Program-made: the position numbers and the translations under genes
Shown: positions 29,851-48,940 of the stretch, one piece after another
Position numbering within the stretch: position 1 is the first letter of the stretch
How the letters are laid out: the number at the start of each line of letters is the position of its first letter
Notes under the pieces: model-generated
What the model was told of the DNA's origin: nothing
The model's database searches: none
Seen by the model: only the letters and a program-made list of their open reading frames with translations
NCBI GenBank assembly: GCA_036350795.1
Contig: JAZBNV010000046.1
Coordinates: forward strand, 3,089 to 67,088
Length of the DNA stretch: 64,000 bases
Reading direction: 5' to 3'
DNA from: Marinilabiliaceae bacterium
GTDB lineage: Bacteria; Bacteroidota; Bacteroidia; Bacteroidales; VadinHA17

Positions 29851-29871
29851 AAAAAGATAAATTAGAAAATT

Positions 29872-29887
29872 TGTTCCACGTGGAACC
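29872..29887. promoter_or_regulatory. parS centromere-like site
   Basis: TGTTCCACGTGGAACC, 15/16 match to the palindrome TGTTCCACGTGGAACA; intergenic. Confidence 0.85.
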
Positions 29888-30027
29888 ATGAAAATAAACA
29901 CTTATCAACATTAAGATATGAAAAATCTGCGTTTATAAACAGTTAATCCTGTTATCGCATTTTATTATGGACTCTGTAAAATATATATCCTATTCCAGCT
30001 AATCCATTATAATAAGCTGAAATACTA

Positions 30028-31917
30028 TCATCTCCCCAGGTACATTAACAATACTGCTACATCGCTTGGCGATACACCACTGATTCTGCTGGCCATCCCT
30101 ATTGTTGCAGGTCTGAATTTTTCGAGCTTCTGTCTTCCCTCAGTAGATATTGATTTTAACTCCTCATAACTTATATCTTCAGGGAGTTTTAAATCGTTAA
30201 GGCGTTTTATTTTATCTGCCACATTTCTCTCTCGGTCTATATATCCCTGGTACTTTATTCCAATTTCCACCGATTCAAGAATTTCAGCCTTTCTGCTTCC
30301 CAGTGCCTCCATCAGCTCACGGCCCCTCTTACTTATTGTAAGCAACTCCTCCAGGCTTAATTGGGGTCGTCCTGCCAGATTTTCAATACTTGCACCGTGC
30401 TTAAGTTCGCTCGTACCTTTCTCCAACAATAAATCTTTTACCTGGTCAGGTTTATATTTTATCTCCTTAAGCTCATTTCTTAGCCTTTTTACCATCTCCT
30501 TCTTTTCTATAAACCTCTTCTCCCGTTCGCTGTCAATCAGCCCGATCTCTTTCCCGACCGGGGTTAACCTTTCATCAGCATTATCCTGTCTGAGAAGGAT
30601 TCTGTATTCGGCCCTCGAAGTAAACATCCTGTAAGGCTCATCCACTCCCTTTGTGACCAGGTCGTCGATTAATACACCAATATATGCTTCGTCTCTTTTA
30701 AAAATAACACTTTCTTCGCCTCTTATCTTTCTTACCGCATTTATTCCGGCAATTAATCCCTGTGCCCCGGCTTCTTCATATCCGGTTGTACCATTAATCT
30801 GTCCGGCGAAATAAAGGTTCTCTATTCTTTTTGTTTCAAGTGTCTGCTTTAACTGCGTGGGCTGAAAGAAGTCATATTCGATTGCATAACCCGGTCTGTA
30901 AATAGCAACATTCTCAAGTCCCGGAATTTTCCTTAAAGCCTTCAACTGAGTCTCAAGCGGCAGGCTTGATGCATAGCCATTTATATAATATTCGTTTGTA
31001 TCCCAGCCTTCGGGTTCAATAAACAACTGATGTGTTTCCTTATCAGCAAAAGTCACTATTTTATCTTCGATACTAGGACAATACCTTGGGCCGATACCTT
31101 TAATCATACCCTGGTATAATGGACTATGCTTTAAGCCTTCCCTGAGTAAATCATGTACTTCCCTGTTTGTATGTACTATATAGCAGCTTCTTTCATCGTT
31201 AATTTCAATTCTATCATGCAGGTACGAAAAACATCTTCCCTCGGCATCACCTTTTTGTTCTGTCATCCTGCCGAAGTCAATTGTTCTTCCGTCTAACCTG
31301 GCACTGGTTCCGGTTTTCATTCGTTCTACCTCAAAGCCAAACTCCCTTAATTGCTCGCTTATTCCTTTCGACGATTCATCTCCGGATCGTCCGCCTTCAG
31401 AGGTACTAAAACCCACATACATCAAACCGTTCAAAAAGGTACCGCTGGCTATAATTACAGCAGATGCCTTAATCCTGGTTCCAAAACTGGTTTCCACACC
31501 CTCAATCTTTCCACCTTCAACTATAAGCTTAGTTGCGCGTTCCTGCCACATATACAGATTATCCCTGTTTTCGAGCAATATTCTCCATTCCCGGCTAAAC
31601 AGGTCTCTGTCACATTGTGCCCTGGGACTCCACATTGCGGGTCCTTTTGACCTGTTAAGCATTCTGAATTGTATCATACTTCTGTCTGTTACAATTCCAG
31701 AAGCTCCTCCCAGCGCATCAATCTCCCTTATAATCTGTCCCTTTGCTATACCTCCCATGGCCGGGTTGCACGACATCTGTCCCAGTTTCGTCATGTCCAT
31801 CGTAATCAGAACTGTCTTCATACCCATCCCTGCCGATGCATAAGCAGCCTCACAACCTGCATGACCACCACCTATTACTGCAACATCATACTCAAAATGC
31901 ATTTCTGTATTCTTCAA
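30028..31917 (-). CDS. mnmG: tRNA uridine-5-carboxymethylaminomethyl(34) synthesis enzyme MnmG (GidA)
   Basis: [40 protein letters not shown]. Confidence 0.97.
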
Positions 31918-46923: not shown

Positions 46924-47919
46924 TTAAATACCAAGTTTATCCGATATCTCAAGCATTCTCCTGATAGGTAATGCTGCTCTTTCCATCAGGGCAGGATCCA
47001 TTATTACTTCAGGAGATTCGTATTTAAGAGTATTATAAATCTTATTCAAAGATATAAGTTTCATAAAATTACACTCACTGCATCCACATGTGGAATCTTT
47101 TGGAGGAGCTGCTATAAATATTTTTTCAGGACATGCCTTCTTCATCTGGTGCAAAATTCCTGCTTCGGTGCCAACAATGTATTTTTTAGCACTGTCTTTT
47201 TTAACATAAGCTAACAGGGCTCCGGTCGATCCTATAAAATCAGCAACCATACGTACAGGCAATTCACATTCGGGGTGAACAATTATTGAAGCATCCTGGT
47301 GTTCTGATTTAATCTTAAGTATTTCTTCAAGTGAAAATTCTTCATGTACATGACATGCTCCCTGCCATATTACCATGTCCCTGTCTACCTTACTCTTAAT
47401 ATAATTACCAAGATTCCTGTCAGGAGCAAATATTATTTTTTCATCTTCAGGCAGTGATTCAACAATCTGGAAAGCATTTGATGAAGTACAAATAATATCA
47501 GTAAGTGCTTTTATCTCTGCTGTTGAATTAACATAGGTAATAACTGTCCTTCCCGGGTTATCATCCAGAAACTTTTTAAATTCATCGGGTGGACATGATT
47601 CAGCAAGGGAACAGCCGGCATTTAAATCAGGAATTAATACTTTTTTCTGTGGGGCAAGTAATTTTGCTGTCTCGGCCATAAAATGCACACCTGCAAAAAG
47701 AATAATATCTGCTTTAGCCCTTGCGGCCTCTCTCGAAAGTGCCAGGCTGTCGCCCACAAAATCAGCAATATCTTGTATATCACCTGTTTGATAATAATGT
47801 GCCAGGATAATAGCATTCTTCTCTTTCCTCATCCGTGATATCCCGGATACAACATCAATTTCAGGATCAATTTGAATATCAAGATAACCTTTGGATAAAT
47901 CTTCCACCTTTTTAACCAT
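46924..47919 (-). CDS. nadA: Quinolinate synthase
   Basis: LAHYYQ, GDSL, GVHFMAETAK, AGCSLA, GACHVH, VHPEC, CNFMK; ATG start 47919 preferred over TTG 47922. Confidence 0.96.
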   Translation of the reverse strand: MVKKVEDLSKGYLDIQIDPEIDVVSGISRMRKEKNAIILAHYYQTGDIQDIADFVGDSLALSREAARAKADIILFAGVHFMAETAKLLAPQKKVLIPDLNAGCSLAESCPPDEFKKFLDDNPGRTVITYVNSTAEIKALTDIICTSSNAFQIVESLPEDEKIIFAPDRNLGNYIKSKVDRDMVIWQGACHVHEEFSLEEILKIKSEHQDASIIVHPECELPVRMVADFIGSTGALLAYVKKDSAKKYIVGTEAGILHQMKKACPEKIFIAAPPKDSTCGCSECNFMKLISLNKIYNTLKYESPEVIMDPALMERAALPIRRMLEISDKLGI

Positions 47920-47922
47920 CAA

Positions 47923-48493
47923 TTATTATTATTAATATTATTTAAAATTATTTATGATGATAATAATATGCTGTTGAAACTGTTTAAAGATTTAATGTAA
48001 AACTATTGTCTATTTTGAAATCAATAATAAAAAAACATCTTTTCAACAGACCAAAAACTATACCGTTTTTGATAATCAGTGCATTGTCACTTTTATTAAC
48101 AATGGTTAAGACTTAATTGTTAAACATAGGGCTGCACCAAAATTAATATTTTTAATGTTTACAGGCAGTTAATTAGTTTGTTTTATCTGATGATAAGTAA
48201 GTATTGTTTAAATCCATATTATTATTAAGAAGATATAAAAGGGATAAGAATATGATTATTTATGAAGAAAGGATTCTCTCTTTTTAAACACTTAATTAAC
48301 AGGATTATTTTTTCTGCAGCCATATACATAACAAAAAGATACAGGAAATAAAAAATTTTCGAAGATTTCAATTAGTAAACAAATGCATGTCTGCAATTGT
48401 TGAGGATTAAAGGGATGTTTAAAAATAGAGTTTGAGATATTAAAATCGCTTAATTATTCTTGGTATATTTAAATCAAATCTAATAAAGGAGTT
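47923..48493. other. Candidate chromosomal replication origin (oriC)
   Basis: Longest, very AT-rich intergenic gap; TTWTNAACA boxes at 48040-48048, 48093-48101, 48282-48290 and 48416-48424(-), plus several 1-mismatch copies; gene orientation flips here. Confidence 0.7.
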
Positions 48494-48940
48494 TTGAAAA
48501 AGAAAAGAATTGCACTGGCCGCCGATCATGCGGGTTTCAGAATAAAGGAAAAAATAGGTGTTTATCTTTTAAAAGAAGGTTACGAAGTAAAGGATTTTGG
48601 TTGTTTTTCTGACGAAAGTGTTGATTATCCTGATTTTGCACATCCTGCAGTTGCGGCGGTTGAATCCGGTAAATTTGACTTTGGAATAACTGTTTGTGGA
48701 AGTGGTAATGGTATTAATATGACAGCCAATAAATACCAGGGCATTAGATCTGCACTATGCTGGAATGAAGAAATAAGCAGGCTGGCCAGGGCTCATAACG
48801 ATGCAAACGTATGTTCTCTGCCCGGTAGATTTGTATCTTTATCTGAGGCAATTTTAATTGTAAAGACATTTTTAAGCACCGGCTTTGATGGAGGAAGACA
48901 TGAGCGAAGAATTAAAAAAATACCATTAAAAAGGAATTAA
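48494..48940 (+). CDS. rpiB: Ribose-5-phosphate isomerase B
   Basis: ADHAG, VDYPD, CGSGNG, AHNDAN, GGRHERR; TTG start. Confidence 0.93.
   Translation: MKKKRIALAADHAGFRIKEKIGVYLLKEGYEVKDFGCFSDESVDYPDFAHPAVAAVESGKFDFGITVCGSGNGINMTANKYQGIRSALCWNEEISRLARAHNDANVCSLPGRFVSLSEAILIVKTFLSTGFDGGRHERRIKKIPLKRN

Follow-up and report, generated by a model that had tools for sequence, protein, structure and literature searches.

The window analyzed here, a 64,000-nt stretch of DNA (contig C46:3089-67088 of a 3.52-Mb draft genome in 188 contigs), contains a long intergenic gap between nadA and rpiB, and this locus raises the question of whether the gap is the chromosomal replication origin (oriC) of an uncultured Bacteroidales bacterium. 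Bacteroidetes origins are commonly located far from dnaA, according to authors citing DoriC (PMC4755523), and an initial annotation of the window had proposed such an origin, unlinked to dnaA and equipped with a variant DnaA box. The gap is very probably oriC. This reading is based on the GC-skew switch, motif enrichment, the conservation and genome-wide uniqueness of an unwinding module, and separation from dnaA, in addition to a parS-like site and mnmG 18 kb away and a gene orientation that diverges at the gap. Two findings that would speak against an origin could be looked for, a skew minimum elsewhere and a lack of motif enrichment, and both analyses came out in favor of the proposal.

All closest relatives of the window's NadA are from uncultured Bacteroidales metagenome-assembled genomes (MAGs). 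Near-identical sequence is present in public runs from marine-sediment and algae metagenomes, and the best runs, marine-sediment metagenomes, contain a strain 1 to 3% divergent at a word depth of ~6 to 9× as assembled contigs.

The gap (positions 47923 to 48493; 571 bp) is 77% A+T (~23% G+C), contains no open reading frame (ORF) of ≥50 amino acids, as initially described, and has no match to Rfam families. It is flanked by two divergent genes, nadA for quinolinate synthase A (46924 to 47922, minus strand; Pfam NadA, E = 4e-120) and rpiB for ribose-5-phosphate isomerase B (48494 to 48940, plus strand; Pfam LacAB_rpiB, E = 1.6e-54), and transcription of both leads away from the putative origin. 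Judging from the start-codon context in an alignment of six same-genus or same-family gaps (alignment A1), translation of nadA probably begins at the ATG at 47919. Of 18 genes between 26.3 and 47.9 kb, 15 are oriented leftward, and past 48.5 kb, 11 of 15 are oriented rightward; the earlier counts (16 of 19 and 11 of 16) were thus roughly matched. A parS-like palindrome, TGTTCCACGTGGAACC (29871 to 29886; 15-of-16 match), serves as an origin-proximal marker ~18 kb left of the gap, and mnmG lies beside it (30028 to 31917, minus strand), in agreement with the 16 to 18 kb first given for both. Two exact copies of the variant box discussed below are found within 60 bp after this palindrome (TTATCAACA at 29902 and TTATAAACA at 29933), and the parS-like site and both boxes (29871 to 29941) share the short gap downstream of mnmG. 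The end of a 3.1-kb contig (locus L107; G000:C64:1-747) carries a further nadA-like gene, truncated and with 59% identity to that of the window, which could be a paralogue or bin contamination (contamination estimate, 2.9%).

The initial annotation had placed four exact and five one-mismatch copies of TTWTNAACA in the gap and had seen no canonical TTWTNCACA; all nine coordinates were recovered in the motif scan, and the canonical form is absent from 47923 to 48493. Two of the exact copies are predicted DnaA boxes in the nadA-side half of the gap: TTTTCAACA followed by G (48040 to 48049, plus strand), which is TTATCAACAG in relatives and whose columns are invariant in A1, and TTATTAACA (48093 to 48101, plus strand), within which TGTTAATAA is invariant in 6/6 sequences of A1. 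The other two are both TTTTAAACA, one at 48282 to 48290 on the plus strand and one at 48416 to 48424 on the minus strand, the latter in the poorly conserved rpiB-side half, which is variable in A1. The one-mismatch copies comprise a tandem pair at 47972 and 47981, described below, a near-palindromic box at 48118 to 48126 (TGTTAAACA or TGTTTAACA, with one mismatch on either strand and TAACA kept in A1), ATTTAAACA at 48205 to 48213 (minus strand), and TAATTAACA followed by GG at 48293 to 48301 (plus strand). Four exact copies compare with 0.42 expected, and none of 300 dinucleotide shuffles of the gap reached four. Genome-wide, the gap has the joint highest density of TTWTNAACA (4 per 600 bp), tied with a partly coding site on contig C31. 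A box cluster of the kind looked for in an origin is therefore present only when the lineage form of the box is used, the count of the canonical form being zero.

Conservation within the gap is uneven. The nadA-side half is conserved in A1 and the rpiB-side half is not. An inverted repeat, CAAAAAC-TATACC-GTTTTTG (48052 to 48071), is conserved between two of the DnaA boxes; its AAAA(C)GGTATA core is fixed at −147 to −151 from the nadA start in eight gaps of the genus and family, and the same word is enriched in a k-mer test of orthologous gaps. An accessory origin-binding protein may recognize this repeat. The window's gap also carries an extra ~60 to 75 bp at 48300 to 48375 that is absent from same-genus relatives (A1 columns 150 to 225), and this insert and 48117 to 48156 form a 40-nt inverted repeat with 75% complementarity. 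Just upstream of rpiB, TAAATATACCAAG (minus strand, 48440 to 48470) is invariant in 6/6 aligned gaps and is probably the rpiB promoter. Bacteroidota promoters have a TAnnTTTG-like −7 element.

The gap and its motif extend across the order. All 23 nadA-carrying genomes of the order have a gap of 350 to 866 bp with 15 to 31% G+C upstream of nadA, and rpiB is the divergent neighbor in most of them. An unbiased k-mer test of these 23 orthologous gaps, with dinucleotide shuffles as the background, returned TATTAACA (39 observed versus 3.7 expected), ATTAACAG (19 versus 0.9), TATCAACA (19 versus 1.2), and TTTCAACA (21 versus 1.9), with TTCAACAG also among the top k-mers, and gave the consensus TTATYAACAG. 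Position-wise enrichment rebuilds TTATCAACAG, with A, C, and G preferred at positions 3, 5, and 10, respectively; apart from position 6, the rebuilt motif agrees with the classical DnaA box throughout (8 of 9 positions). These two enrichment analyses against shuffles were used in place of expectation-maximization refinement of a weight matrix, which stayed on its seed. When all single-base variants of TTWTNCACA were scanned, only the change of C to A at position 6 was strongly enriched (65 versus 11.3 ± 3.4; z = 16), and the canonical form itself showed mild enrichment in the order's gaps (9 versus 3.2). The enrichment that the initial annotation had left to be computed is thus present both in the window's gap and in the 23 orthologous gaps.

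Outside the order, in Chitinophagales, the same position is occupied by the textbook motif. The top words of the orthologous nadA gap in Chitinophagales are the canonical TATCCAC (45 versus 1.4 expected) and ATCCACA, so the variant 9-mers of the window's order occupy the place of textbook DnaA boxes, which is the best available argument that DnaA would bind them. Boxes with A at position 6 (A6) and boxes with C at position 6 (C6) are both enriched in all four lineage groups compared: 6.0-fold and 2.7-fold, respectively, in the window's order, 3.2-fold and 6.3-fold in other Bacteroidia MAGs, 2.8-fold and 7.8-fold in Sphingobacteriales, and 4.8-fold and 17-fold in Chitinophagales. These values are most simply read as a position 6 that tolerates A or C throughout the phylum, with a drift toward A as the main form in the window's order. 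Box specificity does not seem to have been newly switched in this order, and of the variant box proposed initially, the dominance of A6 stands, whereas a switched specificity gives way to a relaxed position. The link of the gap to nadA, which the initial annotation had noted for predicted Bacteroides origins, holds across Bacteroidales, Chitinophagales, and Sphingobacteriales. The divergent neighbor of nadA varies by order (rpiB, a gene of ~530 amino acids, or a gene of ~710 amino acids), and the long, A+T-rich, box-rich gap persists.

Box preference was also compared with the DnaA protein itself. Base-specific contacts of Escherichia coli DnaA are made by R399, P423, D433, H434, T435, and H439 (PMC7561715, PMC5043019). 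The DnaA of the window's genome has R, A, D, H, A, and H at these positions, i.e., the changes P423A and T435A, with the other four contacts kept. Residues 423, 435, and 439 are A, A, and H in the window's genome, K, S, and Y in Sphingobacteriales, and K, T, and H in Chitinophagales; Pro423 is lost in all sampled Bacteroidota DnaA proteins and Thr435 in only some of them. At group level, lineages with Thr435 favor C6, but there is no clean covariation of the box with the contact residues, and enrichment of both A6 and C6 boxes is seen whether residue 435 is A, S, or T. Three MAGs (L023, L024, and L033) have the same recognition helix as the window's genome and yet three C6 boxes and no A6 box, and one Ferruginibacter genome with Thr435 has seven A6 boxes. 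T435A as the sole cause of A6 was rejected, as the box type of individual genomes follows neither contact residues nor G+C content (Spearman coefficient, 0.09). Inspection of DnaA domain IV, suggested at the outset, therefore yielded changed contacts and no clean match to box type. P423A and T435A would make a simple case of coevolution of initiator and site, but the present data do not link them causally to the shift. The 255-bp gap upstream of dnaA contains no exact box of either form, and there is consequently no sign of autoregulation that would tie the motif to DnaA.

The nadA-side end of the gap carries a candidate unwinding module. The published basal unwinding system (BUS) consists of a DnaA box with ≤2 mismatches to the standard motif located 0 to 16 bp from ≥3 NAN trios, and species-specific motifs are allowed (PMC8287927). 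Read on the minus strand toward nadA, the boxes at 48093 and 48040 are followed by the tandem pair, the spacer GCAT, the trios, and ~30 bp of A+T. The predicted distal box, CTTTAAACA followed by G (47981 to 47989, minus strand), directly abuts the predicted proximal box, GTTTCAACA followed by G (47972 to 47980, minus strand), in which AACAG is kept in 6/6 sequences of A1; on the minus strand, 47989 to 47972 reads CTTTAAACA(G), (G)TTTCAACA(G). A second box in tandem is a BUS feature, present here in the abutting pair. Between the proximal box and the trios lies a 4-nt spacer (47968 to 47971; ATGC on the plus strand, 3'-CGTA-5'), of which the minus-strand form, GCAT, is conserved in the same-genus alignment. 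The five DnaA-trios (47953 to 47967, plus strand) read 3' to 5' TAA TAA TAG TAG TAT with A central in each, and the minus strand of the run is ATT ATT ATC ATC ATA, the central A being on the complementary strand. The run fits the published rule (.A.){3,} and is kept in 13/23 orthologous gaps, although NAN is a weak criterion in DNA so A+T-rich. The candidate DNA-unwinding element (47920 to 47952; 93 to 97% A+T) extends from the trios to the nadA start codon; no other 30 bp of the gap are as rich in A+T, a pure A+T tract of ~30 bp ends at the start codon, and the same A+T-only tract is found at the equivalent position in relatives. By composition, the whole of 47920 to 47967 (93 to 97% A+T), adjoining the tandem boxes, is an A+T-rich element of the kind expected in an origin.

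Against E. coli TTATCCACA, 3 and 4 mismatches are counted in the tandem boxes, which would therefore fail the published rule except with a lineage-specific box. For the proximal box GTTTCAACA, the count is 3 to TTATCCACA, above the BUS limit of ≤2, and 2 to the lineage consensus TTATCAACA, within the limit. The combination of tandem boxes, spacer, ≥3 trios, and A+T tract occurs in 13 of 23 gaps, compared with 0.32 in shuffles, and is located at −51 to −87 from the nadA start in those 13. In the strict form of tandem boxes plus trios, it occurs once in the 3.52-Mb genome, at this locus.

Parallels exist among origins already described. In Prevotella intermedia OMA14 chromosome 1, as in the window, a cluster of DnaA boxes is located at a clear GC-skew transition and not near dnaA (PMC4755523); that origin was predicted with E. 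coli boxes, one mismatch being allowed, and its neighbors and box variants were not discussed (PMC4755523). Predicted basal unwinding systems of DoriC-predicted origins, including those of cultured Bacteroidales, are compiled in Table S2 of Pelliciari et al. 2021 (PMC8287927). The boxes listed there (5' to 3') for Porphyromonas gingivalis ATCC 33277, TTATCAACA, and Odoribacter splanchnicus DSM 20712, TTATTAACA, are of the A6 form, as here, and the entry for Prevotella ruminicola 23 has tandem boxes, a CGTA spacer, and TAG, TAT, and GAT trios, like 47953 to 47989 (PMC8287927). The Table S2 entries score A6 merely as mismatches to the E. coli box, without a lineage consensus (PMC8287927), whereas the consensus used here comes from unbiased enrichment over 23 genomes, and the window's tandem pair is more degenerate than the Table S2 boxes, with G or C at position 1 and T at position 3. 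Two elements are thus already on record: Bacteroidetes origins far from dnaA, and A6 boxes in a DoriC-based table, scored as mismatches. We found nothing specific in the literature on a link of nadA or quinolinate synthase to oriC, on the variant 9-mers or the TTATYAACA consensus, or on DnaA-trios in Bacteroidetes.

In the incC region of Bacillus subtilis oriC, the elements follow in the same order: DnaA boxes 6 and 7 in tandem, then a short spacer, repeated trios centered on A, and finally a tract rich in A+T. The B. subtilis origin flanks dnaA and has canonical boxes and 3'-GAT-5' trios, and its function has been shown, whereas the window has TAA, TAG, and TAT trios, A6 boxes, and nadA as a neighbor, with function predicted from sequence. 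As in the window, nadA of Chitinophagales and Sphingobacteriales is preceded by a long, A+T-rich gap and faces a divergent neighbor gene; in the Chitinophagales gaps, canonical TTATCCACA is dominant (17-fold) and A6 is secondary (4.8-fold), a relation that is reversed in the window's order (2.7-fold versus 6-fold).

The identity of the protein bound to the 9-mers is a separate matter from the location of the origin. That the enriched 9-mers are DnaA boxes is likely, if less so than the origin itself, and we infer DnaA as their binder and 47920 to 47967 as the site of unwinding. Alternatively, the origin could lie in the gap while TTATYAACAG is bound by another protein, a lineage-specific origin-binding or nucleoid protein, and DnaA acts on other, weaker sites. 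Such a binder would fit the lack of these boxes upstream of dnaA, and DnaA, which differs from that of E. coli at two of six base-contacting residues, may have a different specificity; the inverted repeat at 48052 to 48071, a second conserved element, implies that other factors may act here. Against such a binder, the motif departs from the DnaA box at only one of 9 positions, shows the preferences of the box at positions 3, 5, and 10, and stands where Chitinophagales origins have canonical boxes; A6 and C6 are enriched together in every lineage group, and the geometry of tandem pair, spacer, and trios is that of DnaA-driven unwinding. Binding by a protein other than DnaA is accordingly considered unlikely.

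GC skew places a replichore boundary at the gap. Skew in the window's genome was read contig by contig. On the window's contig, cumulative skew drops over 51 kb and then begins to rise precisely at the gap, and no other contig of ≥25 kb (47 in all) has so deep a V; the depth of 548 here versus 426 for the next is a modest margin because the right arm, in which skew is weak, is only 18.7 kb long. Longer contigs of relatives are decisive here. In a genome of the same genus (G013), nadA is at 126.25 kb of a 1.02-Mb contig and the skew minimum, taken from a contiguous 280-kb curve, is at 126 kb, the nadA-upstream gap. All 20-kb blocks sampled from 126 kb to 1.02 Mb (0.9 Mb) have positive skew; the rpiB-side arm (C1:1-80000) is clearly negative for only ~50 kb and near zero farther out, and a rearrangement, an island, or a MAG misjoin could account for this. 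In a genome of the same family (G028), nadA occupies 296.5 to 297.5 kb of a 1.9-Mb contig and the minimum, at 298 kb, is again the nadA-upstream gap, with a negative left arm and a mostly positive right arm. The skew minimum asked for when the origin was proposed is therefore found at the gap in the window's contig, G013, and G028. In Pedobacter frigiditerrae, which belongs to another order, the skew changes sign in a basin at 700 to 750 kb that includes nadA (726.5 kb), and dnaA is in the positive arm at 1.668 Mb, 0.94 Mb from nadA.

Adjacency to dnaA or dnaN is common but not defining for oriC, and the gap is not next to dnaA. The dnaA gene of the window's genome maps to contig C131, along which skew rises monotonically with no switch, as anticipated by the description of the origin as unlinked to dnaA. 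Likewise, the 1.02-Mb nadA contig of G013 lacks dnaA, and G028 has the two genes on separate contigs.

A skew minimum at divergent genes might also arise without an origin. If the gap were only the divergent promoter-operator region of nadA and rpiB, with the origin elsewhere, a local V would be expected from gene orientation regardless, the near-equal depth of the V on other contigs (426 versus 548) would be unremarkable, and the nadA promoter must in any case fall within the gap. In relatives, however, the change of sign persists for 0.9 to 1.6 Mb and not merely for a few genes. Furthermore, the neighbor of nadA differs between orders and yet the long A+T-rich, box-rich gap remains, the Chitinophagales gaps are packed with canonical DnaA boxes, and the unwinding module is unique in the genome. 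A role restricted to transcription is thus very unlikely.

The C31 site that equals the gap in box density (G000:C31:16745-17280; 4 sites per 600 bp) is partly in a 462-amino-acid ORF and partly in a 228-bp divergent gap (TTATTATTAACAAGTTTTTAACAAG). It was rejected as an origin, being mostly coding, with a gap of only 228 bp and no unwinding module, and could be a DnaA-regulated promoter or a chance cluster. Least credible of all is that the nadA-rpiB gap is a DnaA-titrating or regulatory box cluster (datA- or DARS-like) or a relic origin instead of an active one: DnaA-box clusters outside origins occur in other bacteria and C31 provides a second dense TTWTNAACA cluster, but titration sites do not coincide with a replichore boundary, as the gap does, and are without a conserved module of trios and A+T unwinding tract.

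With the gap as an active origin, initiation may be envisaged as follows. DnaA would bind ~nine 9-mers with the consensus TTATYAACA(G), i.e., the classical box with A for C at position 6, most of them in the conserved nadA-side half (47972 to 48126). From the tandem pair (47972 to 47989), it would oligomerize over the 4-nt spacer onto the five trios (47953 to 47967). The ~30-bp pure A+T tract ending at the nadA start codon would then be opened and the helicase loaded there, and forks would proceed leftwards through nadA and rightwards through rpiB. A broader scenario is offered tentatively and may well prove wrong: the pairing of origin and nadA could be ancestral in Bacteroidota (Bacteroidales, Sphingobacteriales, and Chitinophagales), with the nadA start ~30 to 90 nt past the unwinding element, so that the same DNA serves both in transcribing nadA and in opening the origin, and the DnaA of the phylum, lacking Pro423, could accept A or C at position 6, which would have let some lineages exchange nearly all canonical boxes for TTATYAACA.

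Fixing the origin of this uncultured marine-sediment Bacteroidales genome helps to orient draft assemblies, to estimate growth rate from coverage, and to build oriC-based vectors. Origin finders that score boxes against the E. coli TTATCCACA will give too low a score to origins of this order, in which the dominant box is TTATYAACA(G), and would need a box adapted to the lineage; the nadA-upstream position and the conserved module of tandem boxes and trios provide alternative search handles. One detail of the published table concerns other Bacteroidales. The “species-specific DnaA box” that Table S2 gives for Paludibacter propionicigenes and for Tannerella forsythia is printed 3' to 5' as ACAAGGTGC, which is 5'-TGTTCCACG, and both entries continue as ACAAGGTGCACCTTGT, the parS palindrome; a ParB site was probably taken for a DnaA box here.
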